Shown here: positions 4,783-55,241 of the stretch, piece by piece | Position numbering within the stretch: position 1 is the stretch's first letter | How the letters are laid out: every line of letters begins with the position of its first letter | Source of the DNA: Marsupella aquatica | Taxonomy: Eukaryota; Plantae; Marchantiophyta | Length of the DNA: 64,000 bases | Direction of reading: 5' to 3' | Assembly: GCA_973895155.1 (NCBI GenBank) | Contig: OZ316895.1 | Location: 11,086,184 to 11,150,183 of the forward strand | Notes under the pieces: generated by a model | Told to the model about the DNA's origin: nothing | Seen by the model: only the letters and a program-made list of their open reading frames with translations | The model's database searches: none | Program-made: the position numbers and the translations under genes

Positions 4783-4978
4783 AACTCCCCCTTGACTCTT
4801 GTCTTGGGGACTGAACTAAATGTTACCATATGGAATCCTCAGCGGGAAGTTCTAGACAATCACCAAACCAGGTCTCCCCCTAAAAACCACAAGGGTTAAC
4901 TAGAACTAAGCCGTAGCCAAACAAGAATGAGTAATCCACATACAAATAGTCACACATTGCTAAATAACTTTACTTGCA

Positions 4979-10089: not shown

Positions 10090-10720
10090 GAAGATAGTTC
10101 GGAGGCGAAAGATCCAACTACCTCAGGGGGAGAGGCAGAGGCTGCAAAGTTGGAGGAAGCCGCGGACGAGGAAGATCAAGCTTCACCTACACCCGTGGAG
10201 GAACGGGAAGACCAGGAAGACCAGCCCAACAGGGCAATCCATCCCGACAATACTCAGGAAGACCCGCCGTGGAGTGCTTCTGATGCGGCACCAAGGGCCA
10301 CCCACATAAATTGTGCCGCATTGTGACGCCGCCGGTACGGCAGTTAATGAGTGATTCGGTCTTGTGACGCCGCCGGTACGGCGGTTAATGAGTGATTCAG
10401 TCTAACTGCGCTCGGCACGCGTGTTAGGTGGGTCTTAGGCCGCTATTATTAGCATAACGACAGTATTTAGGTAATCATTAGGGGTAGGACATCATTAGGC
10501 AATAAGGGGGACTTCAGGTTCGGGCTGGCGGCGGGTCGCTATTCGCACACCCGGGTTACGAGCGTGGGAGGGCCCCTCCCTCGGGTCCGTATAACAAACT
10601 TAAGGAAGCGGCCACTAACGCACGCTGACTCGGACCGGCGGAGTGGCCGGTACACCACAAGCGTGAGCGGTTCAGCCTATGGGCGTCGAGGAGACGTCGG
10701 GGATCGACAAGCCCTCAAAG

Positions 10721-10727
10721 TATAAAA
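10721..10727 (+). promoter_or_regulatory. TATA box ~108 bp upstream of the A1 LTR gene (equivalent in A2 at 25749-25755)
   Basis: TATAAAA conserved in both copies in a GC-rich context, upstream of ATG 10829 / 25857. Confidence 0.55.
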
Positions 10728-11090
10728 GGGGAGCCAACCCTTTGTAGTGCACCAGTCCATCAGTCCGCGCGCCAGCTTCGACCCCAGCTCTCTCGTTCTC
10801 TCTAGGTCGCCACTACTATCTCCTCTGAATGTCGCACACGATCCTCTCCAGCTTGGCCATTCGATTCTGGACGCAGTTCCTATCTACCGGAAGGCACTTG
10901 GCCGATTCATTGAAACACGCCAACCCGCGCCGATACAAAATCGAACGCGAATACGAGAGAGCCATCCGCCTAGCAGGACGACACCACTACATCCTTAACT
11001 TTGACTACCTGTCTCAGAGCGAGCTTTACCGACCAGCAGAGGTATCTGGGTACTTCTTCAACGGGGACAAATATATCGGGTTCTGGGAAG

Positions 11091-11388
11091 CTCAGGGGTC
11101 TCACTATACGGATGCCTCCCTATCACCTGCGACGTTTTTAGGCCTCGGACCCCCTAAAATGTAAGAAATTTTTTTATTTTTTCAACCCCTATAAAGTTGG
11201 AATATTCTTGGAATATTCCAAAATTTTGGTTATAAGGACCCTAAGTCTTCTTATAAGTCTCAAAATTGGATTTAAAAGACCCTATTGTTCTTCTCAGAAA
11301 ATTCTTAAGTCTTCCCTTTGAACCAATAAAATGACCCTATACTTCGTCGCACGTGATATGCCATTTTTGTGGAAGTGAAACCCCCGAG
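11091..11388. mobile_element. 298-bp MITE with 15-bp imperfect TIRs and 8-bp TSD
   Basis: TSD CTGGGAAG (11083-11090, 11389-11396); TIR CTCAGGGGTCTCACT / CTCGGGGGTTTCACT; absent from the homologous site in A2 (~26111). Confidence 0.93.
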
Positions 11389-13080
11389 CTGGGAAGCATT
11401 GCTTCGGCTTCCGGACGAGGTCTTCAACATCCCGAGTACAATCGACCTGCAGCGACATCACTTCGACCACATCCCTGCCCAGGTTCGGGCTGTCATTAAC
11501 GGCGAGTCCAGTACCAACCGTTCGACAAGGGCGTCCGCACTCGCTTTGGAGAACTTCTACCAGCACCTGTAGAGCTTCATAGGAACTCGGCCATCGACCA
11601 ACATGACCAACTCAGCCGTGCTCGTACCCGTACCCGTGCCCATGCAACCCCAGCCTCAACCTCAGGCTCAGCTTCAGCTTCAGCCTCAGCCGCAGCCTAG
11701 CCAAACCCCACCACCTATCACCCAGCCAGCACAGGTACGCTCCGTCATCAACGCTGTGGATCTTAGCGATGACGACGAGGCTACCCCACCCTTGACCAGG
11801 CGGCCCAGAGGAACAAGCGCTCGGGGGGCCGATACTATATCGTCCCCACCCCCTGCTCCGACCCCAAGAGCGGCCCTAGCAGACAACCTGGTGACCGTGG
11901 CCGCCCCGGGCCCGTTACCAACGACAGTGGCACTCCCCAGGCCCGATCGGGAGGATGGGGAAGTATCACCTTCCCCGAGTCAGTCACGGGGAAAGAAGAG
12001 GAAGGAATCCGCCACTGCATCCGGGTTACCATTGGCCACGGTAGCCGTAGCCAAGGTGACGATGCACCGCATGGGGAAAAACGTTCACAGCAACATCCTC
12101 CATCCCAAGCATGCGGTGTACCTGAAGACTCAGGGATTTGAGCACCTCGCCTCTCTCCCCTGGAACACTTGCAGGTACTACGGGGAGGACATGACAGAAT
12201 TCGTCAAGAATTATGACGACGTACGTCAACAGACTCGGCTGCGGGGAAGGAATATGTCCCTCACAGAAGAACGGCTCAAGATGATCTTCGGGTTACCCGA
12301 AGGTGACCATCGAGTCGAATCACGGGCTCCCGGGGGCAAGGGGGCCAAGTACCAATCTTCAAGTTTTCCCTCAGAGGGAGCAGTAGACAACGGGTTCGTG
12401 ATGAGGACCTGCCTCATGCCCGAGATAGCTGAGCGGCTGGAGTTCCAAAGGTACGCTCTCCACATGATGGAACCCCGGGGGAGATCTCCGCCGCCCAGGT
12501 TATCCAGGTCGAGAACTATCGACCTAGGAAATGGGCGTCGTACTTCGCTAAGAAATTCCATGAAGAGATGGAGCGGCGAAGGAAGACGCTGTACATTGGC
12601 GGGAAGGCGTATTTTGCTAGCCACATCGAAATCATTCTTGAGTGGTACACCGGTTTGATCGACGAACCCTTCCCCGCATCAACGTTACAAAGCTGGTCCC
12701 CCTGGGCCCCCAACGTTATTAATAATGGACCGGACGTGCGAACGGCCGAAGGGTACATTTAAATCAATTCCAGATTAATTTTTATAATCGACTTATAACC
12801 AACAAGACCATATTTTATATGACAATCTCTTTATAACTATTCCAAGGCATCCAAAATGCCGGCCAAAATAATTTGCTTGAAGGGGGCCAGTAATATGGCA
12901 TGACACACGTCATGATGAGATTGGTCCACATGGCACGCCCTGAGTGGAGTTTAGTGTAACAAATACTTGTGGTGAATAGGATGAGTTATGAAAGTATTTG
13001 GAGTTTTGAGGGTTTAGGGTGAAAGGTTTTTGGGGGTACATTTCTAGGGGGTTTTGGGTGTTTGCAGGGCAAAAGTTTAG

Positions 13081-13272
13081 GGGGAGTACTCAATCCCAAG
13101 GGAATGAGCCCTGGAATGAGTCAAAGGTCCGGGGCAGGGGGAGTAAACAATCCCCAAGGGAATGAGTCGAAGGCCCGGGGCAGGGGCCGGGAATACTCAA
13201 TCCCCAAGGGAACGAGTCGAAGGCCCGGGGTCAAAGTGAGTCCAAGGGAGTGTCAAAGTCGGGGTCGAAGGG
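13081..13272 (+). repeat. Imperfect ~50-bp subterminal tandem repeats (3-4 copies) in the DNA transposon
   Basis: Recurring caatccccaagggaatgagtcgaaggcccgggg-like unit. Confidence 0.75.
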
Positions 13273-16200
13273 AATTAGGGCTCAGCTTCAAGCCGCCGGA
13301 TTTCACATAGTGCTACCAAGTCGAGAGGTTCGGTTTAGGCTGAGGGAAGTGGAGCTTGCAGGTTGGCTACGGACCTTGGATGAAGGAAGCTATGGGGCCT
13401 AAATGAAATGTTGCGGGTGGAGGCCGACACTTGATGCTTGCGAAAGTGGCGTTTGACGCAAAGCGGGACGTTGCAAGGCTGGGAGGCGTGCACTGGCGGG
13501 ACCGACTGTGGGAGGCACACCTTTTTTGGAGTTTTGTTTAGGGGTAACTTTCCTTACACTGCCCACTGTTTACGTAGAATGATCATACTTTCCATTGTTT
13601 ATGCATGCATACACTTTACTAACTATGAAAGCTCGTAACCTACTACCAGCTATTGCCCGAGCTACCGTCGATCTGTAAGAAGGGTGAGGCGCGGGTTGAG
13701 GTGTTGTTGTGGCTATTGTTGATCTGCGCTTAGTGCCGTTTGTCTGCTGGAAGCCCGGCCAGCGGGAAGCCCAGGCATCTGAAAGAGGTCCGACTCCCTC
13801 TGCTCACTATCTTACTCGGCTCACTACCTTACTCCGCATAGTACGTGATTTCAAATATTTTGGTATGCACTGCACTTCCCGCTCCACTTTCGACTATGGT
13901 CAACTCCTCTTTGTTTTGAAATTGCGGCTCACAGCAGGGCTGAAATGTTGCAGAAAATGAAAGGTGGTATGCCTTGGGTGTTGTGGGAAGCGACATTGTC
14001 TATGTAAGGTTTGCTATTGTTGCTATTGGAGCGCAGCCCCGAGTATGCGTGCAACTGCAGACGGTGTCTCAAGCTGTCTGTAGGAGGCCCACAAATCCTA
14101 GCATGCTGCAATGCAAAAAGGTCCAAATCAGTGTCTTGCCTTTTCACCACCCTGCACACCCTCTGCTCATTGTCGTTGTCTATGCAATTTAGTTTTTCAT
14201 TGTATCCTGAAGCTTTACAAGCTTTCATGTTGAGTCTGGTCGTGGCGTTTTCCCGGGCGTTTTGGCAATCCTGTGTTAATTGAATGTTGGGCCCGACTGT
14301 ATCTGTTGCCGCTGCCGTTTGGAATTTGTTGGATATGGTGCTCTCTGCTGATTCCCACATTGTCGTGCTCAGTGCTGTCATCTTGTTAATGTGGGCTATG
14401 GCTTACTGATCCGTAAGTCTACTCGCAAGCAATCCAGATAATTTTATGTTCTAATGTGTGACAGGAAATGTGCTGTCTCCTCTTTCCTCTTTGCTTGACT
14501 TATTCCTTTGCTTTTGATCTTGTCCGTGTATCTCAATCTTGGGCAGCTATTTTCATTTACATAGTGACTGTAAAGCTTTGCTAGTTGCTTACATTGTAAT
14601 GGTATTTTGCTCTCCATTACAGTTGTTCTTCTGACTTGTTCGATGGCATTTGACTGTCCAATACAGCGATGAGCCAGCTGCGTTGAGTTCTTTCAATTTG
14701 ATCAGCTGTTGGGAGAGCGTTCGGGACGTTGAATTTGAGCTGGTGGCCTCCGAATTGTTGAGATCAGTCAGTCTTGGGTGAAATCCAGTGTTTGCGTGAA
14801 AAGGTCCGTGCTCTTTGCTCTTGACGTCTCTGTTTGACTTGGACCCTCAATTTGTTTCACGGGGATTGCAGCTTTCGTCTTTCATAGAGTCCAAGTCTTT
14901 CTCGATTACATTACTGTGTACTTGTAGATGTCTTCCAATCGGAGGTACGCTCTGTGTTTCACAGGGATTACAACTTTCATCTTTCACAGAATCCAAGTCT
15001 TTCTCGATTACAAGGCTTCTTGTTTAATGTGGGTGCCAATGCCTGTGCAGTTGTAGATGTGTTTGGTTTTCTAAATGCTAATATTTTTTGTGATTGCAGA
15101 GTTTTTTGTTTGGGTGAGCGCTGTCCACCTCAAAAGACTACAAGCGATTGCAACAATCAGGTCATTTTCAAACTATCTAATCGTTTCTTTTGCACAATGT
15201 CATAGTGATTTTCAAATCTATTGGTATATCATTTGCTCTTGTTCAATCAGAGTAGCAAAGCATGGTGAACTCCTATTTGTTGCTCCATCGTGGCCTGCAT
15301 CGTGGTTAAATTTGTGCTTCAAATGTGTGCAGAAGTTGTCGCTCTTGCTGTCCGGGCATTTTACTTGTCAAATGTGCGGCTACTGCTGCGGAAGTCCCTG
15401 TGGAAGGTGTCTGCCATAGGCCAGTGGAAGGTGTCTGCTTTTGGGTAGTTTGCCTCTCAGTTCTCCTTTGTGTCCATTGTACTAGTCCAGGAATAATTGT
15501 GGGGTAGAAATGTCGTTGTTTGATCGAGAACCACAATTAAGAACTTTGGTATATGAGATGGGAAGCGATGGACGTAGCAAAGCTGAGCTGAGCTGAGAGT
15601 AGATAGAACAATTTTGCATCACGGCAAAGCGATGAAGAAGATTGATCATGGCCAATTTTTCCGATCATGGCTCTAGACAACTGACATGATTTTGTCCAAT
15701 TCTCACATCCGATGACACAAGCAAACCAGTATTACAGAGTAGTAAGTGGCTTTGCACTGCACAGTGAGTTGTAAAAAGGGAAGTATCGACCAAAACCCCA
15801 CTCAAAGATTTAGATGAGGTCATGAATGAGGAGTCGAATACAAAGCTGAGCTGCTATGCGCGGCTACCCCGGCGCGTTGAGGAGCTGAGGGATTTCTTGT
15901 GTTTTGGGGTTTCGTGTTTTGGTTTTTCTTTGTTGAACGAGATTCGGCTTGCAGTCTATGCAATCATATGAGGATTTTGGTGGTCCGGTTTGAAGGTGTA
16001 ACAATTCTGCCATCTCGTTCTCCTTTTTGGCATTGACTTCAAACACAGCTTCTGCTGCTTTGCCTACATTCCCCTTCTCCCTTCCCTTGTTTCCCAAGCC
16101 AAGATAGTAATTCACGATTGATCGCAGCTCTAATCCTCATTTCGGTGTCATATTTTGTGTTGCTGGTTTGTTTACTTTATCTTGTTTGTCCGATACCAAG

Positions 16201-17767
16201 TTGCAGTACACTTGTGAGATTTTCTGTGTGTCCAATAAGACCTTTCTCTTAACCCCTCAATCTCAGCCATTCCATCACTCAACTCCTTTAATCTCATATG
16301 GATCGATCCAAGCGAGAGGCATCGATTTCATGCTCCTCTGCTACTTCTGCGCCTTGTTCCTGCTCCTTTCACAGCATTTGTAGGGGCAGGGACTAGATGG
16401 ATTTTGAGCAATTCGAACAAGCAGCGGATTGCATTATTCAAATAACCCATTGAAATATCCTATACAGATTGCAATATTAAAAAACCCACTTCATTTGCTC
16501 ATTGCAATAGTATTGCGTAACTTTATTTTATCACCGAATGTAGCAATTCTCTTAGTAGGTCATTACTGAAATGCGGGCTGAAATGGTAACAATTTCAATT
16601 GCCCATGATAATTGTGTTGCATTACTATAATGAGACGAAATTGAATTGCTATTTACTTAATGCCTTTTCTCTTTGCTTCTCACTCTTTGTAGGAGGGAGT
16701 GATCATTGAGACTGTATTACTTATGCCCCTATGCCCCACCTCCAGAAGGAAACATGTCCCACACACTGAGTACATTGTAAGGTAAGATTTGGGGGATCAT
16801 TGATGTTCCTGTATATGGCAATGCCTTCCTTTTCCTGGCATTACCCTTCTAAATAGTCCCACTGCAAACTATTTTTAAAGATATTCCTTAAACTCATTTT
16901 TTGTTGTCATTTACACAGATACTCATACACCTCTGAAGTCAGGAAGGACAGACGCCCCCAAGTGTTGGGTTCCACCATCACAAGGTATCCAATCAATTTT
17001 GCATTTTGTACTATTTCCTTCTGGATTACCGTATCTGTAATGTCTCCACAGACGCTAATTGACAGGCATTGTGTGTTGCTGAGGTAAGTTTTCAGCTTTT
17101 CATTTCCAGGTCCTGTTTGCAATTTCCTTCCCTGCTATTGCAAGTGTTGGTTTGCAGGTTCCTCAAGTTCATTGGGACCCTGGGGAACTAATGCCCCCAG
17201 AGGAGACTTGCTGGAAGTGATGACCCAGCAGTCTAGCGCCCCTTGAATGAGAGAGCAGGTTGCCTGGGAGGGGGGGGGGCCTTGGAGTTGATTGCCAATG
17301 GCATTCCTGATTAGAGCCCAAAGTGTTAGGATTTGGTTGGTCCGGGATTGGCAAAGAATCCAAATTCTTGGGGCATTTAGGGTCGATAGGGACTAAGTCC
17401 AAGTACACCGTGTTCGAGTGGAGGGAATTGGAGTGTGGGCAACCCGACTGTACATGCTAAGCACACATGAGCATGTTACAGATCCCAATCCCTCTAGTGC
17501 TTACATTGACATTGGAATCCTTGTCAGCAAAGGGGCCACCCTTCCCACCCGAGATTTCTCGGAGAAAACTGACTTGGATCTGTAGAAGCCAATCACCAAG
17601 AGCAATGGCCGGGATGGGGCAAGGCTCTCTTGGGGGTTGGTCCAATGGATGTGGTCTCCCAAGCAGTGGGCTGCTGTAGATGTTCTGTACTAGGGTATTT
17701 GATTGGGAAATGCTTGAATGTGACATGTCCATTGTATTTCTTGCAGGTCTGAATCTGTGATTTTTTC

Positions 17768-20700
17768 ATGCCGCCTGTGCCTGTATTTCTCGTTGACCAT
17801 GAGTCAGGGACCAGAAAACACTCTGGGACCATTAGTTGTCTCCCTGGATGGACCTTGGCGGATGCTAGGCAGAAAATGGTGGATTTGGAACTTTGGGACT
17901 TTGATTTTGATTTTATTGATAGCGTGGGAGGTTGTAGATTGCGTGCTGCTTGGGAAAAAGGCAACCTCATTGATGATTGTGATGGAAAGATTGTCATCAT
18001 CCCAAAAATACAGTCTCTGCCCATCCAGAAAGTGGGGGTAGATGTTGGAAGCAGCAATGCCTCCAATGCTGAGGCTCTGAGTAAGAGCGTTAGTGACAGA
18101 GAGTGGCACACTGAAGTTAGGGTAGAACCTGAGATACAGTGGGGACAACAGGACTTGCCTCTACCTGTTTCACCCCCAACTTCACCTCTCCCTAATGTAC
18201 CTGTGGATGATGATCCACATGTGAGTTTCCAGTCAACAACTATGTCAAATGATCTGGCCAAGCTCTGGGTGTCCAGTGTTGACAAGTTGAAGGAGCATAT
18301 GGTCTTCATAAAGTGTGAGGACCACAAGTGGAGCGTCAAAACTTGGGACAATGGTGGTGTTCCATGTGGTAAGATAGAGTGTTGCGAGTGCAACACTAAT
18401 ATATCTGGATCATCTAAGTATGTTATGGATAGGGTGTCTGTCACTAATTGTTTCACAAATTTCAAACAGAAGCATTTGATCACCCCAAAGCATGCCAAAA
18501 ATGTGGCACATAATAGGGGGCAGAGAGTAGACTCTGTTGAGATCAGTCGAAGGGCTGCAGCTTCCTCCTTGAACGATCGTGCAACTCTTGACATGCATGT
18601 TCAGATAGTTGAAAGGCTCAATGAATCTGAGCCTGTGTCCAAACCTACCTTCTACATTGTAGGTGATGTTCAGAAGGAGCCTGTGGAGAAGTTAGAGCGG
18701 TTCAGAGTGGGGTGCCATTTTTGCTCTGACGTGTTCACTTTGGTACCCAAGCAACGTAATCTGGAGGTTAATCTGAAATCCCATTGCATCTCTGCAAATC
18801 ATCTATCAGTAGTGGCTAGGAGTTTGAAGCCACCACCTGGTGCACCAATACTGTCAGGAAGGTCAGGCAGACCTCCCAAGGATGATAAGAGGGATGTTCG
18901 CCAAAGAACCATTAATGGGTTCTTAACCCGGCAGGCCAGAGATATTGCTTCCAGCAGCCGGTCAGGAGGGACAGCTGGAGGGAGTGGTTCAGGAGGGAGT
19001 GGTTACAGTGGAGGTTCAGGCCATTCAGGGGATGTGACAGGAGATCCAGGTAAACCCCACCCTTGGTCATTGTTGTGTTGGGGATTGTGGCGGAACTCAG
19101 TTCAATATGGTGCAGTAATCAGGCCTATCAAGGATATCCTATTAGATCAGCCAAAGGTTGATAGAGCATGGTACGCAGAGTCAGGGGTAAAGGCAGAGGT
19201 GTGGTGTCTTCTAGGCCAAGAATCTTGTTTGATAGAAGGACTGTTCAGGCACGTGAACTGTAGTAGAGCATCACGGCTTCTTGGTGGTTTTCAAGATCTG
19301 ACTTGTGAAGAATGTTACAGTATTGCAAGGATGGGTGACTTCCGATTAAGAGCCTTTAGAGAGGACATTGCAGTAGAGAAAAGAGGTACTCGAGGAACCG
19401 GTAAGGGTAGACGGTTGGCATATCTCACAATTCCTGAGATTCAAGAACAAGCCAAAACTTACAAGAGAAACATTTCGTCTCTCAGAAAATGTCTCAGAGC
19501 TCAGCAACACCGCCTGTGCATGCTGGGGGCCCGAGTCCCCACTTTGAGAGATCTTTGCAAAGAGTCTGGAAGTAGGAAAGACATGTACAAGTTTTGCAAT
19601 GACATAGTCTTGGCTCACCAGCGTGGTGCATTTGGTGGGAGAGAGGCCCTATGGGACTTGTTGCGAGATGTAGCTGCAAATCTTAATAGGAAGAAAGAAG
19701 GAAACACCTTTCGGCCTGGCACTAAACTTCTTTCCCAGATATTGTTCCAACACGGTGGCAGGCGTGTGGTGGACTGCTTGCAAAGTAATGCATTAGGCCC
19801 TAGTCTGAACACCCTTCAACGGGACAGGAGAGCCATGGCTGTATTTAGGCCTGGTTTGCATGCTGACCAGTTCAAGTTTGTTGCTGCTGTATACTCTCAA
19901 CTAAAGCAGAGGATGGGGATCACAGGTCCCGTGCCATGCTATTTGGCAGAAGATGAGACCTGTCTTAAGCGGACAGTCAGGTGATTTCATTCCCCTGGAC
20001 AACATCCTACAGTCTGTAGTAAATTTTTGGCTGTTATCCCTCTCCTCAATAGGTCTGTGGCTGACCACTATTGTGGATGGCTGTGTTGCAGATGGCAACC
20101 AAAACATGACACCTTATTGGGGTTTTGTGGGTTGAAAGAGGATCACCAGTGTGTGGTTGGCTTGACAATAAAGGTTGGAGCAGGAGAGGAGGGTTTCAGC
20201 AAAATCACTGATACCTTTGAGAATTACAAAATTGGAAACCAGGCCAGATGTATAGTAGTAAATCCTCTTGCAGAAAGATTTCCTAAATTTTGCATGGTAG
20301 CCATGAGTACATGCGGTAAGTTTACTGCAGATTTTGTCAATCAACAATGGAAGTCCACAGACACTTTGTGGGCTAAATATTGTCTAGACTCAGTTGGTCC
20401 TCTCTTGGGTCATGCTAGTGATGGAGATGCACGAAGGAGAAAGCTGATGCTAGAAGACTACACTGGTCAAAGCTCATATCAAGGGCAAAGACAGAATTTG
20501 AGATGGGAAGGTTGGCTATTGAGCCACTCATTCACTACCAATGGACGTCATACACATGCTGTTGGTTTACATGATCAGGATTACATTCATAATGGAAAGA
20601 AGTTAATAAACCCACTTGATTCTGCTGCCAGAACTTTGAACCTGGGAACAGAGGTGGCTGGAATCAGTAACTTGGACACTCTCCAACGTTTATATAGCAA

Positions 20701-22501
20701 CTTGGATCATGGGTTGAACAAAGGTGATGTTACACGGAATGATAGACAGAATTGGGCCAGTGCACAACGATTATGTAGTAGAAAAGTTGTGAAGGCACTA
20801 AGAATGCTTCGTGAAAGGAAAGATGCAAGAGTTGAGCGAACTCTGGGGACTGAGATGTATCTCACAATATGTGGTGATTACTTGGATATCTTTATGAATC
20901 CTTGTCTCACCTTGAGAGAGCGGGTTGTTCTCTATGCCAAAGTTAGTTTCTTTTTTCGCCTTTGGCGATTATGGTGTTTTCATGGAAATCATAGTGTTGG
21001 AGGTAACACGACAGCAATCAATTTTACTGTGAGTTGTGTCCCTATGCAGACATTTCTTGATATTCAGATATCTGTGCACTTTGTGGTACTTCTAATTATC
21101 CAATTCAGGGATAATTTCAGACATTTGCCAAATGTGCCATTGCATTTGACAGGATCTGATGCATGTGAACAGTTTTTCTCCAAAGTAGGAGGAATGAAAG
21201 GGAATGAGCGTAGTTATGATTTCTCTGAGTTGATTGACTGTGCAACATCGTTGAATAGGTTGGCTGCAATGGATCTCAGCAAAGGGATCAGAGGGGCTGG
21301 AAAAAGTCACAAGAAGCATTGCAATATTTGGATGAAATTGCATCCAATACCGGTACAAGTTGGTACTTCTGTTAATCCTGTAGACTACACAGGTATTGAA
21401 ACCAATGAGGAAGTTGTGGTAGCTCTGAAAGAAGGGTTACTTTTAGCCCAGACTGTAGGAATCGAGTTGCAGATGAATCCATCTACATCTTGTAGGGATA
21501 AAGTATGGTGGGAATCACCTTGGATTACTGAAAAAAAAGGGTCCAAGTTTGGAGGATGGTGTGATGTTAAGGTGGAGGATCTTGCACCTGTTGATAGTGA
21601 TGATGAAGAATCAGGCGGGGAGATCAGGCAAATTGCAGCTAATGTAACTATCCCAACACTTCCAACTGATATGGCAATGGCAGAAAGTAGTGAGATCATT
21701 GAAGATAGTGAAAGGCCAAGCATTGCAATAGTAGGGGATCATTGTTCAGCTGTTATGTCTGAAATGCATTCAGACTTGGTGTATGGACAACCTGTTCTTG
21801 ACATCAGACCAACTGTGAGTTTTGATGGTCGGACTATATACAAGAGCACATTGGTAAGCCAACTAGTTGGTAACCCCAATGTAAGTAAAGATCGTTTGAC
21901 TAGAGTGAAACAGAGCTTGTACTTCAACAATTTAGTTGATGCACCCAAAGATCGAGCAGGAGCAGTCACCATGTTCATGACTGTGGGTAGTGATTGTGGA
22001 GTTCTCTTTGCTGATACAACAGTACAGACTCGGGCCACAAGAGCCACTGAGGCTATACAAAAAGCCATGAAAGGGAAAAGAGCAAGGAAAGAATGTGGGA
22101 CAACAAATGGATATTCTGCTCCCAATCCAAAAAAGCCAAGGGGAGAACCTGTGAACGTTACCACAGTACCTGATACCCTTAAGTACACTTGGTGGATAGG
22201 GAGGGTACAATGCATCCAACGAAAATATCAGGGTCGGGTGATGGGTAGAACAAGACAATCAGTGGATTTACTTGATAGGCCTGGTGGTGAAGAAGCTGTA
22301 AGAGTTCGTTTTGAATGGTTTTCAAGGATTGGAAATAGTAAGCACAGATTTGCTTACAATGTTTGTGATCCTCAGTGGATCGATTTGGATTGTGTGATAT
22401 CAAACGTGACACTATCAGTGAATCCCACAACTCCAAATGTTTTTCATTTGCATCCCGCTGATGCAAATTTGCTGGATGATTTTGCTAAAGCCCATAAGTG
22501 A
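17768..22501 (+). CDS. P-like DDE transposase, ~1540 aa; exons 17768-19980 and 20092-22501
   Basis: GT-AG intron 19981-20091 joins LAEDETCLKRTVR-WQPKHDTLLGFCG in frame; motifs EDET, HASDGDARR, QDYIHNGKKLINPL (DxxH), DRQNWASAQRL, TGSDACEQFFS; two C2H2-like motifs N-terminally; no internal stops; further 5' exons possible. Confidence 0.82.
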
Positions 22502-25500: not shown

Positions 25501-25856
25501 ATCATTATGGGTAGGATGTCATTAGGCAATAAGGGGGAATTCAGGTTCGGACTGGCGGCTGGTCGCTATTCGCACACCCGGGTTACAAGCGTGGAGGGGC
25601 CCCTCCCTCGGGTCCGTATAACGAACTTAAGGAAGCGGCCACTGACACGCGCTGACTCAGACCGGCGGAGTGGCCGGCACACCACAAGCGTGAACGGTTC
25701 AGCCTATGGGCGTCGAGGAGACGTCGGGGGATCGACAAGCCCTCAAGGTATAAAAGGGGAGCCAACCCTTTGTAGTGCACCAGTCCATCAGTCCACGCGC
25801 CAGCTTCGACCCCAGCTCTCTCGTTCGCTCTAAGTCGCCACTACTATCTCCTCTGA

Positions 25857-37135: not shown

Positions 37136-37329
37136 GAGCCGGGGCGCATGGCTTGTGCACAGCCGGGAGGTACCGGGCGGCTTGCCGGAGCCGGGAGGAG
37201 CCCGCGAGTAAGAGCCCAGGTGAGCCGAGCCGGGGCGCATGGCTTGTGCGCAGCCGGGAGGTACCGGGCGGCTTGCCGGAGCCGGGAGGAGCCCGCGAGT
37301 AAGAGCCCAGGTGAGCCGAGCCGGGGCGC
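37136..37329 (+). repeat. 91-bp GC-rich tandem repeat (2.1 copies) in the LTR; also at 48210-48403
   Basis: gagccggggcgc recurs at 37136, 37227 and 37318. Confidence 0.85.
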
Positions 37330-41067: not shown

Positions 41068-41085
41068 TGGCGCCGCTGCCGGGGA
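41068..41085 (+). other. Primer binding site, tRNA-Asp type
   Basis: TGGCGCCGCTGCCGGGGA, one base from the Athila-type TGGCGCCGTTGCCGGGGA. Confidence 0.8.
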
Positions 41086-41300
41086 CCCTTCTTCTTGTTT
41101 GACTACACGAAGAGGGGAGCTACGTCTATTTGGAATTCAAGCCTATCAACCACAATGCAACTTGCGACGGTTGATACGTGAGAAGTTTGTTGGTTACTTT
41201 GTTATTGTACGTCAACCACAACGCATCGTGCGACGGTTGATATTCACAAAGATTGCTTTCTGAGACAATGGTGTGAGTTTGGAATGCAGGTCTCAATGGG

Positions 41301-44300: not shown

Positions 44301-47300
44301 GGGGAGACTACCTCTATGGAAGAGCAATATGATTCAGAGGTCACCTCAGATGAGGACGAGGATGAAGTATACATGGTGAAGCTGATTTCTCATCTGACGG
44401 AGGAAGATGTATTTGGCCCACAAGCTGCTACCCCCGAGGAGAGAATTCAGGAGGTACCACTTGACCAAAGTTGTGTTGTGCAGAAGAAAACCAGAGAAGA
44501 GCCACCTACACCACCAATGGCCCAGCTTGTTGATACTCAGGAGGAGGGCCAGGAAGCTCAAGCCATCTTGTTTGACGATGAACGAAGGGAGGAGTGGTTG
44601 AATGACCTCTTGGATGAAGAATTTAGAGAGGAGCTACTGTCACATTACAAAGAATCTGATGTGGAAGAAATGATGGCCCATGTGACAAAAGATCCACCTC
44701 CAACCCGGCCAGACCAGGAGGACAGTGATGCACCTGTGTATGGAGGGATGAGGCTCGCACGGTTGGAAGAGACCTTTGATGAGGAGACACGCAACAAGCT
44801 GGACGTGATCAGGCCAGAGCAGTACACCAAGGTGGAAGTGGGTGAGGGCAAGACACTCAACATTGGTAGTAAGTTGGATGCTACGGAGCAACGCAAGATT
44901 CAAGAATTGTTGAAGGAGTACCAAGATTTGAAAGGAGTGCCACCTGAGTTTGGTGAGCACAGCATTGACCTGATGTCAGGAGCACGACCTGTGAGGCAAC
45001 GCCAATACCGCCTCAACCCCAAGTACTCACTCATGGTGAAGGAGGAGATTGACCGTTTGTTGGATGCAGGCTTCATTTATCCAGTCATGCATAGTGAGTG
45101 GGTGTCACCCATCGTGATCGTGCCCAAGAAGAAGGGGCCAGACGGGAAGGTGAAAATACGGGTGTGCCAAGATTTTCGAAAGTTGAATGAGGCGACCAAG
45201 AAGGATCACTACCCACTGCCGTTTACCGATATCGTGTTGGATATGGTAGCTGGTTGGGAGATTTACAGCTTCTTGGATGGCTACTCTGGCTACAACCAAA
45301 TTTGGATACGGGAGGAGGACCAACTCAAGACGGCTTTCACTACGGAGTGGGGGATTTTTGCATTCCGTAGAATGCCTTTTGGGTTGTGCAATGCCCCTGG
45401 CATGTTCCAGCGGCTCATGATGAATATATTTCACAACTTTTTACGCAGGTTCTTGGAGATCTTTATTGACGACTTTGCTGTCTATGGCAAACGAGTCAAG
45501 CATCCGGAACACTTACGGTTGACTTTTCAGCGGTGCCGGGAGACTTGCTTGAGGCTGCATCCTGAGAAATGTTTCTTTGGAATTGAGGAGGGAACCCTAT
45601 TGGGCCACAAAGTGTCTACTCGGGGGATTGAAGTTGACCGTGAGAAGGTGGCCGTGTGGGTAGCAGTCTCATTTCCCAAGAACGTAAAGGAAGTGAGAGG
45701 GTTCTTGGGGTGTGTTGGATACTATCGACGCTTCATCAAAGACTTTGCCAAGGTAGCCATGCCACTCACCTCCATGTTGAAGAAGGGAAGTGAATTTGAA
45801 CCTACTCCACCCCGACAGGCTGCTTTTGATGAATTGAAGAAACGTTTGCTAGAGGCTCCCGTGCTCATTACGCCCAATTGGAATAAGGAGTTCCATGTCT
45901 ATGTAGACGTATCAGGATTTTGCATCGGTGCCGTTTTGAGTCAGTTAGATGATGATGGAAGGGACCATCCCATCTACTTTTCCAGTAGGCAGTTGGCCCC
46001 GACAGAGAAGAACTACTCACCCACCGATAGGGAGGTACTTGGTATTATTTACGCTTGTAAAAAGTATCATCATTATTTGTTGGGATACAAGGTTGTGTTC
46101 CACACGGATCACAATAGCTTGAAATACATGGTCAACAAGCCAGATCTGTCCGGAAGAATTGCACGTTGGGTTTTGTTGCTGCAGGAGTTCAACTATGAGG
46201 TGAGAGTGAGACCGGGGAAGAATCACAGCAATGCAGACTTCTTCTCCCGTATTGAGGGAGCATCTGACTCACAGGAGATCGATGATCGGTTCCCGGATGA
46301 AGAAGTGTTCAGCGTGACTACGGAGGCCACTACTTGGTATGGAGAAATTTTGGAATTTCTCCGTACGGCGAGAGTTCCCTCACGTTTGGGCCCGGAGAGA
46401 GCAGCAGTGTTTTTACGTAAGACAGGTCCCTACTTGCTTGTGAAGGGAGTACTTCACAAGTACGGCATGGATGGCCGCCTTCGTCGTTGTTTGGAGGAAG
46501 CTGAGATACGTACAGTCATGGCAGCACTACATGAGGAGGAAGCTGGTGGCCACTTTGCACGGGAGACCACCGCAAGGAAAATACTAAATGCTGGATATTG
46601 GTGGCCAACTCTCTTTCGGGATGTACACCGGTACATCCAGCGATGTGATCCGTGCCAGCGGCAAGGCAAGCCAGGGCCCTCCTCACGCCACCCATTGGTG
46701 CCCATACTTCCTCTTGCACCCTTTGAGAAGTGGGGGGTTGATTTCATTGGCCCCTTCACTCCCATCACTAGAAGAGGGAGGAAGCGCTACATCATTCTTG
46801 CAACGGACTATGCCACAAAGTGGGTGGAGGCCCGAGCCATTGCCAAGGATGATGCCAACACCACGGCACGTTTTTTGTACGAGCAGATTTTTACATGATT
46901 TGGTCCCCCATTGGAGCTGGTGAGCGACAGGGGTACTCACTTTCTCAATCATACGATTGAACGTCTGACGGAGAACTACCTGATCTCACATAGGAAGACC
47001 ACTCCGTACCATCCTCGAGCCAACGGGCTCACTGAGAGAGCAAACGGGATCATGGGCAAGATTCTTAACAAGACGGTATCAGCTCACAAGACAGATTGGG
47101 ATTTGAAGTTGTTGGCTGCTACTTACGCCTACAACCTGGCTCACAAGACTACCACGGGCCACAGCCCCTATTTCCTTGTGTTTGGACAACACTCTCTTGT
47201 GCCGGTGGAATTTGAAGTGCCCACCATTCGTATCCTAACACGGGAAAGGGAAGGGGAAGAAAGAAGTGTAGCTGCACGGATCCAACTGTTGGAGCAACTC

Positions 47301-47666
47301 ACTGAGATAAGAGAAGAGGCTTTGACCCGTACGGAGCAGGAGCAAAGCAAACGGAAGTCACATTACGATTCCCGTCTCCGTTGTGTGTCAATTGAGAAGG
47401 GAGATTTGGTACTCCTGTACGACAGTCGTTTTATGCATTTCCCCGGGAAGTTGCATACCCGTTGGATGGGGCCCTACGTAGTGGACGCCGTCTACTCCAA
47501 CGGCTCGGTTCAACTCAAGACGTTGGAGGGGCAACTACTCAACACCCGGATCAATCAAGAACGCTTGAAGAAGTACTACACGGAGGAGGAGTATGGTGCT
47601 CGCGGGGGCGCTTTGCAATTAAGAGGAGAGCTATGTGACGGGGTCCCCCGTCACTTGAAATCATGA
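41301..47666 (+). pseudogene. Gypsy gag-pol (~2120 codons, one frame) with a single premature TGA at 46896-46898 in integrase
   Basis: Three CCHC knuckles, VPVDGGSG protease, RMPFGLCNAP and FIDD in RT, YVDVS RNase H, GGHF..CDPCQ, WGVDFIGP, SDRG, NGLTER, WMGPY; no chromodomain. Confidence 0.93.
47621..47630 (+). other. Polypurine tract of element C
   Basis: AAGAGGAGAG 3 nt before the 3' LTR. Confidence 0.75.
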
Positions 47667-49105
47667 ATAATGGGTTGCAGAGGGGTGTGCCTTGTTAATA
47701 GCCACTGTAAATAAGCCATTTTTAAATTTTTTTTAGTTATTTCCGCCATTGTAGGTTGATGATGCCCCGGGTGACTTTGTATTCTTCCTCTCGTAATAGT
47801 TCTAAGATTTTTGGCGACCTAAGCAGGCAAATATTTTGGGACCTTAAAAAGCTAGAGGGCCAACCCCATTGGAATTATCGTTTGCTTGAGCTATCGTTGC
47901 CACCCCCCTTGTAATTTGAAGAAAAGGGAGCTTTGGGGGGATTAAAATTCCCCATTAGGGAGCCTTGCGAGTGACCAGGTGGCGCCCGGGAAACCTAGCC
48001 CTTGCATAGGGAGGCGCGCCACGCGAGCGAGGGTGCCGCAAGCCAAGGGCTCCCGTGAGCCGGGCCCAAAGGACGCGTGAGTGAAGGAGGGGGGGTATTA
48101 AACCCTTCCGCGAGGAGGGAGCAGGACCGGGCGAGCCCTGCATAGGGCCGCGAGCCCACCAGCCGCAGCCGCAAGTAGACGCAACGGCGAGGGGGAGAAA
48201 GCGAGAGGCGAGCCGGGGCGCATGGCTTGTGCGCAGCCGGGAGGTACCGGGTGGCTTGCCGGAGCCGGGAGGAGCCCGCGAGTAAGAGCCCAGGTGAGCC
48301 GAGCCGGGGCGCATGGCTTGTGCACAGCCGGGAGGTACCGGGCGGCTTGCCGGAGCTGGGAGGAGCCCGCGAGTAAGAGCCCAGGTGAGCCGAGCCGGGG
48401 CGCGAGGCGCAGCCGGGTCGCAGCCGGGAGGAGAAGATCGCGGAGTGGGGAGGGGGGCAATTAAGTTCCCTTGGGAAGGGCCCGCATGAGGGGCTGTGAG
48501 TAGGGGGAATTAAATTTCCCCGGCCTTGGAGGACTGGAGGCCACCGCGAGTATGCCCCGGAAGGGAGGCGCAAGGCGCTCCCGTGAGTAGTGGGGGGAGA
48601 TTAAATCCCCCATTAAAGCGCAGCCGGGATGCTTCGGAGGGCAGGTCAGAGGGGGGCAGGTACGCGCGCGGCAGAAGGGGGGAGAAAATACTCCCCGATA
48701 CACGGGTTAGTCAATACCCAGGAGGGGGCAGCGAACGGCACCTGGTGCTTAGGGGTATACTTAAGGGGGGCCTGCGCCCTTAGGAAAGCCACCACTTCTT
48801 GCGTTCCCCTTAACTTTTTTCTTGCTTCCCTTGAGATGCCGAAAGCTTCCCTCAAAACTGCTTCTTTGTAAACAGTACCCTGGTTCTTGGTTCTCCAATT
48901 TTTTTTCCCCTTTCTCTCTAGCTCGGCATGGAATTGGGGGACTCACTGTCTCCGAGCATTAACGGTGGCTGCAGTGAATTATGTCTGGGAAATTGAGATT
49001 GGGTCATTGATTGATCGGGATACGGGGGCTGTTTCGGGCCAGGGAATTGACATTGCTACGGGTGACGGGATTTGGTGATTGAGGATTTGATTTCGGGATG
49101 CACGA

Positions 49106-51659
49106 ATGCTAGATCAACCGGAGTTCAGTGTGGCACGCATTCGGAGATACAAGGCTGCTTACCGTGACTACGTGGAGACTTTGATTTCAAGGGAGAGAGA
49201 AGAGAGAGAAGCTACGATGAGCACGGGATTGGCAGCAGGTTCCACGCCGGTGGGTAGGAGGATTTTTTGTCGAATTTATCCCAAGACCTCCGCCAAGGTG
49301 ATGGAGGATTGTCGGAATATTTTCCAAGCCACCGGGGTTACAGAATTCATGAAGGTGGAGATTACCATCCCCCCGGGGAAGAGCTGGGACATTGAGGCCG
49401 GGATGGAGTTACGAACGGAGGGAATCTACTTTGAATGTCTCAAACGTGTAGTGCCCCATGTAGAGTTGGCTAGGCTGCTATTTCTGGAGAATCAGAAATT
49501 CTCATTCACACCTCGGCACATCAGGGGAGAACTCACGTTGAAGATGGTGGCCACTTGGGTGATTAATCCCACCTCCACCACTGCCATCCCTCTTTCCGCT
49601 GTCAAGGATGTTGAGTATAAGGGATTCCTGGCCAAGGTTCATCAACGGGTCCTTGGCAACGTGCAATCAGGGGTGGTGAATGAAGAACATTTCGTGGTAG
49701 CTATGGACATCAAGAACCACCCAGCCCATGTGTACGGATGGTGGTACTACGGGTTGAAGAAGCTGTTGGCCGCTGACCTCGGGAGTGTGAAACCAGGTGG
49801 GGCTATACATTTGATGGGGTCATTTGTATTAGCCAGGGCAGAAGGGTTGATTGGTTCCCCGGGACAGGAAGACACGGAATCATCTCTCACCACGGAGATT
49901 CGGAGTATTGCCACTACCGTTATCGGGAAGCTCACGGAGGAATCATCGTCGACTGGTGGGGATGAAGATAGAGGAGAAGAAAACTAGGATGAGGACTACA
50001 CATTGGAGTGGCTTGAACCCTGGGCCCTAAGTGTTACTAATACAGGGAGGACGTGCGAACATCGCAAGGGTGTTTTTAATGTAATGCAAACTAATTTTTA
50101 TAATAGTTTTTAAAGTAGGCAACATCCCTGTATATATATTCAGCACAATATTAGTAATAAGGCTCTTATCAAATACATGTCAGATTAATCTTATGCAAGG
50201 GTACCCAAAATGCCAAGTACACATGTCACTATATGGTTGACACACATGTCATCACTTTACTTGCGCACATGTTCATATAGTAAATCAGATATTTAATTAT
50301 TTGTCGTCATAAGGCAAGTTTGGTTTCGTGGGCTTTAGGAACACTGAGAGGATAGTGCAGCCATGCTTGTCTGTATACTACAGGAAGAACTATAATTCTC
50401 TGGTACTAATTTTGTTTAACTATATAAAATATGTACCCTAAACAAAGGCGTAACATACAAGTCCCCTATGCAAAATAAAGTCTTATCTATTTCAGTATGA
50501 TATTTGCAATTTTAAAAATTCAAGGATGTTTTCAATTCCTTGAAAAACTATATTATAATTTACAAAAGGATAAAATTTAATAAGAAAAGTTAATATTTTT
50601 ACATTAACAAGGGGATTTTTTTTGTGAACAAAAATATTAAGAAGGGGTACATGGGGGGTGTCTGTTCTCAGGGGGGTTCACTTTATATAGTAAGAGTGAG
50701 GGCCCAGGGGGCTTGAATCACTCGTGGGAGATCCGAAAGAGCCCCTGGCCTACAACATTCCGGATGTTTACCTGGCAGAGCTACGGGATTTCAGAGAGGG
50801 AGTCCATGAGGGACTCAAGCTAGTCCACGCATTGAGAGATTCTCTCAAGCACACCACAGCCAGAGTAGAGACGTTAGAGCAGAGTACCCTGTCTCTGAAG
50901 GAGGTGATCAAGGCCAAGGAGGAGACCATTCATGAGAAGGTTAAGCTTCTCCAAGCAGCTCACGTAGAGATCTCCAACTTGAAGGGAGCCTTGTCCACCA
51001 AGGCCAAGGAAGCAGAAGAGGTGGGAGCATTGAGACAAGCATTGGCCAAAGAGAAGCAGAATTCTGGAGAAGTGGTGGAGTGGAGAAACCAGGTGGGAGC
51101 ACTACGGAGTCAGGTGGCCGCCTTTGAGACACGAGCAAAGAGGAGTGAGGCCTTGAGTCTGGGGAAACGGAAGAGCCCCGGCACTCCTAGCTCCACACTT
51201 TCTCCGGATTTGATCTCCCAGGCTATTGAGATGGTAGTGAAGGAGGTTAGTGGGAAGTATGGGCCCTTGTTGGATGGAGCCAAGAAGAGTCAGGAGAAGA
51301 GCAAGGGCTTGGAGAAGAAGCTCCGGGAGGTACAGAAATCATTACGGGAGGCTCAGGTCAGTACAGGGATGCCACCTAGGTCTGTCACCCCCGGGACTCC
51401 CATGGCCACAGGGCAAGTTCTACCGTTGGAGTTGCGGTCCGGAGAAGAGGCTACCCTATGGAAGGATACCATTGGTGAGGGGTACATTAAAGCGTGGCAG
51501 GCCTTGGCCAATTTGAGAAAGCAGGGGAGCACTAGCACAAGGAGTACCCCGGTAAAGAAGAAGAGAAGTGAAGTGGCACTCACTCCAGTGGAGAGTGATG
51601 AGGAGGCCCACTCACGGGGCTCAAGCCAGGGCACCGTGAGTGAAGAGGAGGAGGATTAG
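49106..51659 (+). pseudogene. 3'-LTR copy of the 617-aa gene, broken by CAG>TAG (49985) and the MITE
   Basis: Near-identical to 38032-39885 apart from these lesions. Confidence 0.9.
50018..50709 (+). mobile_element. 692-bp non-autonomous TIR element related to the 10.7-kb P-like transposon
   Basis: TIR CCCTGGGCCCT; TSD GGCTTGAA (50010-50017, 50710-50717); absent in the 5' LTR; both subterminal regions align with those of 12700-23423. Confidence 0.93.
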
Positions 51660-54600
51660 AGTGGTCGTACGGACGTGGTTGTACGGCCCCTGGACTTTCC
51701 AAATTTTTTGTGAGGGGTCACTCACGGGCTTGTTGGAAAGAGCTCGCGGAGCTGATTCCAACAAGAGGCGGCGCTCCTCAAACGGAGCCAGGATGAGCAG
51801 GTTATGGCCCGACGAAGTTGTGTTTATGGGATACAGAAACGGTCAGAACTTGGTCGTCCAATGTCCGTTTAGAGAGCGGTTGAGTGATTCGTGATCAAGA
51901 GGAGGAGAGCTATCCAGGGGTGAACTCAGAAGTGCAAGTGGAGGGGCGCCTAGTTTCGGCCATTGTGGGGTTCCTTGCAATTTCATGGTTCACGGAGTAA
52001 CGTTGGGGCACCGTCGAAGGCACCGTCGGCCCCATTGTTAGTTTAGGGTTTAGGGTTTTTAGACGCATGTGTGTGCCGCATGGTTTTAGTTTAGGGGTTT
52101 CTTAGTGAAGGGTTTAGCGGCGCCGCTAGGGTAAGCCGCCATCATTGTGGCCCCGTGAGGGGTGCTTTGGTGTGTTTTTTGGTATTTAGGGGGAGAGCCC
52201 CAGAGTAGTGGGGGGGAACTCAGCGTAGTACTTGGATGCTTTGGAGTAGCTTTTGTGAGTAGCGCACCGATTAGGAGAAGTTCAAGCCAGAGTAGTGAGG
52301 TGGAGAACGTAGCACTTGTCCCCGGGAGGCAGGAGTTGGGCAGACGGCAGGAGGCCGGGTTGCCCTTGCATGTGTTACGAGAAACACCAAGAGATATGGA
52401 TTTGGCTTGAGGTTCCAATATTTTGTGTGTCACTTGTGGTTGCTTGTGTTGTTTGTTTTCCTCCCCTAGTGCGTGTGGTCGGTGTCGTTGTGGAAACATT
52501 TGCCCTTGTCACTAGTGTTCAAATCTTATTGTAAATGTTGGTATGCTTGCCCAAGAGAGGAGGGGGGTGGTGACAGCACTCACCCGGTGGGCATGAGTTG
52601 TAGATGGTAGGACCAGTCCCTTGGACTTGATCAAAAACGGAGAGACCAGTCGGTAGACTTGATCAAAAAATACACTTCCGGGAGCGGAATCAAACATACT
52701 CATACTTAGGTGTGGAAATCCTCCAAATAGCGTCCCTCCACGACCCCGTAATACGATACCAACGGTTTAAGCAAGGAAAAGTATGGTTTGCACGTATTAA
52801 TCGTTGGACAGGCAAGTGACATTGTCCGTATGAAGTCAGCCGCTCCATACAGACTAGGTTGGTGCATGACCCTTGCTTGTATCCGTTGTCTATCTTACCC
52901 TTGGGTTTGAAGTGCCGGGGTGTATACTCCTTATCCCAAATTTGGAGTTCAACCGACACCGGCCCAGCTGGCAGACAAAAGATCTATGCCAACTGATGCT
53001 CCGTAAGTGATAAGGTCTGCCCTGAAACCTTGGTGGTCGTTACGTTAGTGTCAAAGTTGGAGATGAACTCATAAACCTCCTTTGGCCTAGCTGCGCTAGG
53101 TCTCCATAGCAAGTGAGCAAACTGCTCCAACTAATGCTCCTTGAGATAGTCCGCATGGTCGGGTTTCTTGATCGCCGTCTAGACTACCTCGAGGATGCGG
53201 ATTACCTATAATAAGTTAGGCTGTTGATTATCCGAGGGCCGTTGTCGTGCCGAAAGATTTTGGCTCAGGAATGGCTTTTATAGGGGATGATGGATGAGGC
53301 CTCCCGGTTGGGTTGCGTGCATGCTGACTCGGAGGGGCTACTTGGTTGGATGGATTGAGGTTTGGTGATTGGGTGACTCGTCGTCACCAGGTTTGGTGTT
53401 TGGGTGAGTCACCAGGCTTGGAGTTTGGATGAGCCTCACTGATGGCAGCTGGCTCAGGCTAGATGGTTGGGTTTCCGATGCTACTTAAGACTTGAGCCTT
53501 GGCTCATTGAGGTTGGCGGTTATCTATTGAGATCTGTTGAGTTTCATTCTGTGAGTTTCGCTCCGTTCTGTGAAACTCAACTGTTGTGCGGCGATTTTGG
53601 AGTTCTGTGCGAGTGTTGGATCCAGGTGTGGAGTTTTCAATCCAGGCAGGGATTTCTCGAGTTTGGAGCCTCGTTGGTCCAGGCCCAAGTTTTGTGAGAG
53701 TTGTTTTAGACTAGTGGAGTAGCTAGTCAAGTTTTGGTTTTGTGAGCTAAGGAGGAGAGTTTTTCCGTCAGATTTTGAGTAGATAGTCACTCGAGGAGTT
53801 CAGCTCAACAAGTTAGAGGTAGCGGCCCACCGTAGGGCCAGCTACCAGTCTCTTGCAAGCAAGCTTACTCGAGGACACCCATTCTAACCTTTGTGAGAAA
53901 AGTAAAAAAAATAAAGGAGTGAGAGTTTGCTCCGAAAAGTGCTTGTTGCCTATCCCAATTGCAGCTAGAAATGTGGAGTTTGTCCTCGCGACACCGCCGG
54001 GTCTAGTTGGTCGGTGGGTTGGCCGGGGCAGGTGTAGGGGCGGCGTTGGTTTGCGCTGTTGATGCGGGGGCCGGCGTCATCTTTGCCCGCTTCCGAGAAC
54101 GTTGCTCAAGCTGCGGACTAACACGCTCGAAACCCGAGGAACACTCGGTGTTGTTCATGGGACGGACTTGGGACCGGTTTGGTGGTACGCCGGTGGTCAT
54201 CGGCTGAGGGGCTGGGGGTGGTGTCGGGGTAGCCATATCCCAATTGAAGGCGTTGGAGCTTTCCCCAAGGAACGTAAGATTGCGCACCGCTTCCTGTTAT
54301 CTACTGATGTCTTCTTGGCACTTTTTGGCTACGATTTGCTGGTCGAGGTAATCCGGGATCTTGTCAAACTCCGCTTGAGTCAGCCGCTGGCTGCCCTTCA
54401 GCCTAAAGAACTTTGCTGGGACTTCAAAAATTGCCTCTACTACCGATCTAAGCCCCTCCTCGCTGATATATAACTCGGTGATGTAGTCCCGCAGCTCGTT
54501 GTAGCTGGAATCCTTTGTGATGGTTGTCTTCTCACAGTTAACGTGTGCTACCTTAGCCACCAACTTCGCGTACCTTTGTTCACGGTAAGCGGCTTTCTCG

Positions 54601-55241
54601 GGGCAAGAATACCAATAAGTCTTGGAGAACTTAGCACCTACCTCGCCAAACAAGGTCCAAAATCCCAAGGCTATAAGGGTCATACTAACCTTTGTAGTCT
54701 AGTTTGTTGAGTCCGCGTCCCCGCTCAACAGTTTTGCTTGCTGGTGGAGGCTTCACTCGCCCTGACTAAATCCCGCCACAATCCGCTCTTACCCTTCGAT
54801 AATTTCCTTGTAAAAGTTAGCTTGATTCGAGAAAAAGGCAAGAGGGAATGGCAGCAATCGCGAATTCTGAAAGGTATGAATGAGCAAATGGGCCGCGGCG
54901 CCATTGACTCAGCTCTTATGGAGGTGCCAGGGTGAGCCCGAGCGTGAGAGGGCAAGGCCATTTTGGTCGTTGATAATGACCCAAAGTTGGGTGTCTCGTT
55001 CCAAGCGTGATCCCCTAACGGAGTTTTACTCCGTCGCCGCCACCGTACCTTGGTCGATCGTAATAATCCCCTTTCCTTAATTTGTAATTATTTAGTCAAC
55101 TAACCTACTCCTAATCTATTCATAATGGCAAGGATGGCTATTCATGCTACTCTACGCTATGGCTACGGTCCTAATGACCGTATAAGTCCTAATCTAGGAC
55201 CTGCGTTAGGTTAAGTGACACATTAACCGTGTCACATCCAC

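Follow-up and report, generated by a model that had tools for sequence, protein, structure and literature searches.

A selected gene with a predicted VANC21-like fold in probable solo long terminal repeats of the liverwort Marsupella aquatica

LTR-like units of three families

What is a mobile element that has the ends of a long terminal repeat (LTR), no gag or pol gene, and a large protein gene of its own? The question is raised by a 64,000-nt stretch of the genome of the liverwort Marsupella aquatica (assembly GCA_973895155.1, contig OZ316895.1, positions 11,086,184 to 11,150,183 of the forward strand), here called the window and numbered from its first letter. It contains two copies of a unit A (A_outer and A_inner) and one copy each of units B and D, which encode one protein family composed of an N-domain, a central domain and a coiled coil. 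For the central domain, a fold like that of VANC21 is predicted; VANC21 is the product of an accessory gene of Arabidopsis VANDAL transposons. We tentatively favour the view that all three kinds of unit come from high-copy Ty3/gypsy families as solo LTRs and carry a selected gene of the VANC21/plant mobile domain (PMD) fold, whose product would likely be a DNA-binding anti-silencing factor.

A 5-bp target site duplication (TSD) is present in 4/4 units, the chance probability of such a match being ~1e-3 per unit. Both A copies and B have TG..CA termini; the D copy here begins with TG and ends with TA. The terminal hexamers of A (TGTGAC..GTGACA) are identical to those of both LTRs of element C, a full-length Ty3/gypsy element in the window used for comparison. 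No gag or pol, primer-binding site (PBS), or terminal inverted or direct repeats were found in A, B and D by comparison within the window and a Pfam scan. A sequence-only reading of the window had reported TGTGA(C/T) starts and the lack of gag and pol, with own 5-bp TSDs for the two A units and B; all of this was borne out, and the TSD of D (TCCAC) can be added. The (G/C)(T/G)GACA-like ends that it proposed hold for A and not for B (TGTGAT..CACCACA) or D (TGTGAC..GCGATA).

After subtraction of nested inserts, A_outer and A_inner measure 4002 and 4025 bp, B 3423 bp and D 4606 bp, next to 4489 bp for the C LTR. A tandem pair of A units is ruled out, because two separate TSD pairs place A_inner within A_outer. 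The D gene is split twice, by B and by C. Public contigs skipped B exactly in 3 of 4 runs, backed the A end at 29386 by mixed flanks (3 of 4 runs among the matches listed) and showed mixed flanks at the D end near 30936 in 2 of 4 runs, with the copia-type sequence running on across the D site. A and B are highly repeated, with a summed contig depth (depth, not copy number) of 1e5–1e6 vs ~1e3 for copia. The families nest in one another, A within A (10322–10402) and B and C within the D gene. The units and their genes are as follows.

10322–10362, + strand: first 41 bp of A_outer, with TGTGAC start and left TSD CGCAT
25426–29386, + strand: rest of A_outer, with GTGACA end and right TSD CGCAT
10363–25425, + strand: A_inner, TSD GGTCT, inserted 41 bp into A_outer
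25857–28487, + strand: A_outer gene, 876 codons (N-domain, Pro-rich linker, central domain at 26760–27362, linker, coiled coil)
From 10829, + strand: A_inner gene, interrupted by two inserted DNA transposons and further disabled by a frameshift and stops
10721–10727, + strand: TATA box of A_inner, putative in function, 108 bp 5′ of the ATG (A_outer counterpart at 25749)
28860–29120, + strand: cluster of 7 sense TGTA words 3′ of the A gene, candidate 3′-end signal region
32577–35999, + strand: unit B, TGTGAT..CACCACA, TSD GTTTG, sitting in the D gene
32692–35859, + strand: B gene, open frame of 1055 codons, N-domain from the Met at 32956
33487–34110, + strand: B central domain, predicted VANC21-like fold
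30936–55236, − strand: unit D, whole span, TSD TCCAC
52822–55236, − strand: 5′ part of D, TGTGAC start, N-domain at 54683–54300, first half of the central domain at 53220–52837
36000–36559, − strand: middle part of D, second half of the central domain at 36558–36340
30936–32576, − strand: 3′ part of D, coiled coil at 32570–32019, non-coding end homologous to the A end, TSD TCCAC

The shared gene and its selection

The central domains of the three families match pairwise with E values of 1e-16 (A–B), 3e-14 and 6e-18 (A against the two D halves that flank C) and 3e-8 (B–D). The domain had been noticed before in A and D and is confirmed in both; it is not limited to them, since B has it too. The N-domain, also proposed earlier as common to A, B and D, is weak in pairwise comparison (E 0.009–0.03) and stands out once outside relatives are used (A 1e-13, D 5e-12, B 6e-5 for a profile against 366 six-frame chunks), where the profile consists of four central-domain hits with an N-domain, chosen using the A/B/D alignment, and is partly circular. 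P0009 alone links A (4e-17) and D (3e-13).

The taxonomic range of the family, for which a profile search had been proposed, was assessed with the central-domain profile in an index-free search of 1.84 billion representatives, which yielded 84 clusters of relatives at E ≤ 0.001. Species were checked for 30 of the 84, and all 11 that carried a name were liverworts (7 Calypogeia fissa, 4 Riccia sorocarpa). Two whole relatives, P0091 (906 amino acids, intact, A-type) and P0096 (787 amino acids), are built alike, from an N-domain, a linker, a central domain and a coiled coil, and this architecture is kept at an identity of ~25–30% across families. A, B and D did not fall into one group in a 52-domain tree, the deep forks of which lacked resolution. 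Basic residues are conserved at domain positions 131 and 145, and the net charge is above zero in 26 of 35 near-full domains. Word-indexed protein searches gave no match for B 85–520, for alignment A1 (among longer proteins) or for the C ORF (open reading frame); likewise, no relatives were found in metagenome scans (with the B domain and P0096) or viral scans (with C and A). Two Riccia sorocarpa gene models, P0061 and P0081, have a fragment of the PIF/Harbinger DDE_Tnp_4 domain fused to the central domain; Harbinger elements may also carry the domain, or the models may merge neighbouring genes.

The ratio of nonsynonymous to synonymous substitution rates (dN/dS) between A_outer and A_inner is 0.30 over 862 codons (bootstrap 0.22–0.41) and 0.24 in the central domain, vs 0.96 and 1.26 in the two other frames. 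By this measure, taken from the two sequences, the A gene is under purifying selection, and with the homology across A, B and D the earlier claim of long-term selection on a unit-borne gene stands. As to the present copies, the A_outer gene has five in-frame stops and the A_inner and D genes are broken, so that every A and D copy in the window is defective; the B frame is open over 1055 codons.

The DNA of the units had been described as not alignable by eye. This does not hold for A and D, whose non-coding DNA aligns over the last ~180 bases (score reached by 0 of 500 shuffles). No other 3′ pair passed the shuffle test, and the reversed 5′ end of B gave a weak match to the 3′ end of A (6 of 300 shuffles as high, one of six comparisons), a faint hint that B might have an antisense orientation. 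The DNA before the long ORF spans 380–550 bp in A, B and D vs 1470 bp in C. The TATA boxes reported at 10721 and 25749 are present; B has TATAAA, and the words in C and D are no more than TATA-like. Antisense TGTA occurs once within the whole 896-bp 3′ non-coding part of A.

Predicted fold of the central domain

The AlphaFold2 model of the B central domain, built from 77 rows, reached a predicted local distance difference test (pLDDT) of 93.8 and a predicted template modelling score (pTM) of 0.90. Its best solved chain was 9lnk_A (VANC21–DNA) with Z 8.8, a root-mean-square deviation of 4.0, 202 of 208 residues and 8% identity. Only 4 of 48,161 solved chains had Z 2 or more, the runner-up standing at Z 2.3. 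The VANC21 match gains weight because it covers the whole domain, because the second-best chain scores so much lower and because independent reports describe structural similarity between VANC and the plant mobile domain, itself known from gypsy extra ORFs. Judged from the model, the central domain is probably a true homologue of the VANC21 fold.

Sequence searches of the PDB, including a profile search, were empty or gave coiled-coil noise and did not return VANC21. No relevant Pfam family was matched by the A, B and D proteins of the window, and the N-domain matches no known family. Below the curated cutoff, PF20167 (Transposase_32) was matched by 7 of 56 relatives with a best E of 1.6e-7 (9 of 77 at E ≤ 10); the cutoff is 45 bits, the best distant relative reached 31.8 bits, and none of the window proteins matched. 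An Atlas feature search with P0006 pointed to a PF20167 cluster (0.84) and a PF03078 ATHILA cluster (0.83), which are leads only, the lead threshold being 0.9.

Origin of the units and possible role of the protein

A solo-LTR origin of A, B and D is probable, because no way of replicating is known for units that lack terminal repeats and a PBS, and because C shows that the window contains LTRs this large with a gene inside them. A DNA-transposon origin was ruled out, because the units lack terminal inverted repeats (TIRs) and their TSDs have 5 bp, not the 8 bp of the DNA elements of the window. Of plant LTR elements, 93.4% are reported to have a 5-bp TSD, and LTRs reach up to ~5 kb (PMC6317226).

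In the scheme that we favour, A, B and D would have been produced by LTR–LTR recombination of full-length elements with a C-like layout. The gene would lie between the TATA box of the LTR and its 3′-end signals, which would make it part of an R (repeat) region of great length, and one LTR would be a whole transcription unit, copied twice per element. The protein would oligomerise through its coiled coil, bind short motifs in the non-coding DNA of its own family and prevent the silencing of family copies, also in trans, in which case solo LTRs could keep serving their family. Given the fold, we lean slightly towards an anti-silencing function, by analogy with VANC. The CpG observed/expected ratio is 0.86 in A, 0.77 in D and 0.70 in B, vs 0.62–0.67 in C and 0.41–0.58 in copia and DNA-transposon sequence, which lends weak support to anti-silencing and is confounded by age, coding content and GC content. 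We regard as rather unlikely the wider version in which a VANC-type protein encoded in liverwort Ty3/gypsy LTRs would make each LTR, thousands of solos included, a family-shielding cassette, the domain being an old form of the angiosperm PMD/VANC fold.

Several observations weigh against this scheme. The Z score of 8.8 lies just above the best Z of 7–8 that is typical of models without a Foldseek match, and Foldseek matched the B model to nothing in PDB or BFVD at E ≤ 0.001 (best BFVD entry A0A890CAY5, E 0.017); when the 51 chains from Foldseek were re-compared structurally, none reached Z ≥ 2. PMD PF10536, DUF1985 and DUF287 are absent from the Pfam matches (25 families listed for 77 members). 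No gag-pol interior with A, B or D units as its LTRs turned up in the 64-kb window, and the contigs that run past the 3′ ends of A and D (4–9 per end, agreement ~0.5) gave no PBS consensus, in a comparison of low sensitivity because the junction contigs are often short. The C ORF, tentatively likened earlier to the A, B and D proteins, showed no significant relation to the family: it scored 1.6 bits against the family hidden Markov model (HMM; 5 of 500 shuffles as high, profiles seeded from A, B and D) and E 0.08 by hhalign (4 of 100 shuffles as high). The A gene may lie within R, between promoter and 3′-end signals; B lacks a TGTA cluster and has only 140 bp past its stop, and D has only 2 TGTA words, therefore the R-region reading rests on A. 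Repeated short motifs are the hallmark of VANC targets, and enrichment of 7–9-mers in the non-coding DNA of A, B and D was confined to a C-run in A (one copy per family). Finally, a common fold does not by itself establish a function: cellular PMD proteins are reported to promote the silencing of transposable elements (PMC5418596). A candidate motif, AGTATTTAG, occurs twice in the non-coding DNA of A and is similar to the VANC21 motif YAGTATTAY; it was rejected, since a 9-mer found twice is at chance level.

The units could also be solo LTRs with a real accessory gene whose protein is of the Transposase_32/Athila-ORF1 type and serves as a particle scaffold, in nuclear import or in integration targeting. 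The sole Pfam and Atlas links, Transposase_32 and ATHILA, are families of unknown function that would suit such a role, as would the finding that no target-like motif is enriched in the units and the long coiled coil, given that Athila-domain and VANC proteins were both modelled as coiled-coil pentamers (PMC13547354). The structural match to VANC21, which extends over the full length of its DNA-bound part, speaks against it, and so do the conserved basic positions and the mostly positive net charge described above; we hold this alternative to be unlikely. A reading of A, B and D as non-autonomous single-unit elements, and not as leftovers of recombination, with integrase-type ends and an accessory gene only, moved by borrowed reverse transcriptase and integrase or other machinery, is quite improbable. 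In its favour, all four copies of the family seen here are solo, public contigs contain A and B in great abundance (again by depth, not copy number), no PBS consensus lies beyond the ends and B is nearly all ORF; yet the ends and the layout agree with the true LTRs of C, long LTRs are known to yield many solo LTRs, and we know of no route for the full reverse transcription of a unit without terminal repeats or PBS. Were the gene simply an internal extra ORF of the usual kind, or one captured from the host, trapped within LTR bounds and decaying without function, the broken state of all A and D copies in the window would fit. The dN/dS of 0.30 between the A units largely refutes this idea, and the open 1055-codon frame of B, the architecture kept across ~25–30% identical families and the fact that A and D have both the gene and terminal DNA in common make it very improbable.

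Comparison with known systems

The closest structural parallel is VANC21/VANC6 of the Mutator-like VANDAL elements of Arabidopsis (PDB 9LNK; PMC5735166). The A/B/D gene resembles VANC in its predicted central-domain fold, as a putative transposon accessory gene, and in having a conserved domain between variable low-complexity regions together with a coiled coil. It differs in its carrier, the liverwort gene residing in TG..CA-type units with 5-bp TSDs and no transposase rather than in a Mutator-like VANDAL element, and also in its 8% identity, its extra N-domain and in that no target motif arrays were found in A, B and D. The relatives found here are liverwort proteins, whereas VANC is called dicot-specific (PMC13547354). 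Short motifs in the non-coding part of its own element are the binding sites of VANC, which removes methylation family-specifically (PMC5735166). Sequence-specific anti-silencing by an accessory protein is established for DNA transposons (VANC, TnpA), and the VANC DUF1985 domain has been reported to be structurally similar to MAIN/PMD. By analogy, the A/B/D protein, which lies outside the VANC family by sequence and carrier, likely works like VANC.

The PMD (PF10536; PMD-A of Ogre/Tat gypsy elements, MAIN/MAIL1) is similar in being a gypsy-associated extra ORF, and different in that no Pfam PMD match was found for the A/B/D family. We take the W-x-x-E-T..FGLP-x-G stretch of the central domain to resemble PMD. 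PMD and Athila ORF-1 are known gypsy extra-ORF domains. Transposase_32 (PF20167) and ATHILA ORF-1 (PF03078) are alike in the sub-cutoff match of 7 of 56 relatives over the same domain and in combining a domain with a coiled coil; they differ in that the window proteins have no match and the gene here likely lies within the LTR. Retroviral genes in or overlapping the LTR, in its U3 (unique 3′) part, are known from sag of mouse mammary tumour virus and from lentiviral nef, and are kept in solo LTRs. These share with A, B and D a protein gene within the LTR, and differ in its position (U3 vs apparently downstream of the TATA box) and in the unrelated protein. PMD is described from angiosperms (PMC5418596), and the extra ORFs of plant LTR elements covered in PMC7264820 and PMC6317226 lie in the internal region, their function being left open there. 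Comparison was extended to 10.1101/2024.09.27.615353, 10.64898/2026.08.24.746577, PMC12859917 and PMC12885004. Our literature search, which spanned main texts only and had key VANC papers outside its coverage, found no report of liverwort retrotransposons with a gene that is VANC-like or lies inside the LTR.

If a selected gene of liverwort LTR-like units has a VANC-like fold, this provides a testable function for the extra ORFs of plant LTR elements. The VANC/PMD fold would then reach far past the angiosperms, which bears on the direction of exchange between host PMD genes and gypsy elements, a point left open in PMC5418596. It also suggests that solo LTRs, usually seen as dead ends, could stay active in trans.

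Element C and the remainder of the window

Element C and the inserts in A_inner occupy the following positions.

36560–52821, + strand: element C, full-length Ty3/gypsy, TSD TTGTC, comparison element
36560–41048 and 47634–52821, + strand: 5′ and 3′ LTRs of C
41301–46898 and 47052–47666, + strand: gag-pol of C
41068 (41049–41086), + strand: PBS-like site TGGCGCC.. of C, unusually far (19 nt) past the LTR end
38032–39885, + strand: C LTR ORF of 617 codons in the 5′ LTR, its counterpart in the 3′ LTR being broken; no significant homology to A, B and D
11091–11388, no strand assigned: 298-bp insert in A_inner resembling a miniature inverted-repeat transposable element (MITE), 8-bp TSD
12700–23423, no strand assigned: 10.7-kb DNA transposon in A_inner, TIR CCCTGGGCCC, 8-bp TSD

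The LTRs of C contain the long ORF behind a TATA-like box and differ at 46 of 4488 aligned sites, and this divergence of ~1% indicates a recent insertion. We take the PBS-like site to be of the Athila/tRNA-Asp type. The weak family match of the C ORF coincides with the expected first motif of the family, and the single-sequence fold of the ORF has a pLDDT of 33. The polyprotein occupies the 6.6-kb interior, and no archaeal RNase H was among its Pfam matches. Coverage of the 5′ part of the C LTR by public contigs is far below that of the ORF and the 3′ part, which suggests that this part varies among subfamilies. The 5′ LTR has 91-bp tandem repeats at 37131–37357 and many AGCCGGG words in its 5′ part.

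The window comprises host plant DNA and two mobile-element nests, as seen by self-comparison and reading of the junctions. The ORFs of the 10.7-kb DNA transposon (17768–19984 and 20294–22501) had no Pfam or PDB match and contain DET, SDGD, HDQD..H..KK and SDACEQFF motifs; presumably the element is P-element-like. A 692-bp element in the 3′ LTR of C (50018–50709) has the same termini. A decayed copia-type element, assigned by motif, is split by D (29387–30935 and 55237–57434), and a second one, likewise decayed and assigned by motif, lies at 4494–10089 with 289-bp LTRs. The host genes are the C-terminal part of glucose-6-phosphate dehydrogenase (1092–1457) and an unbroken xyloglucan fucosyltransferase ORF (60924–62720).

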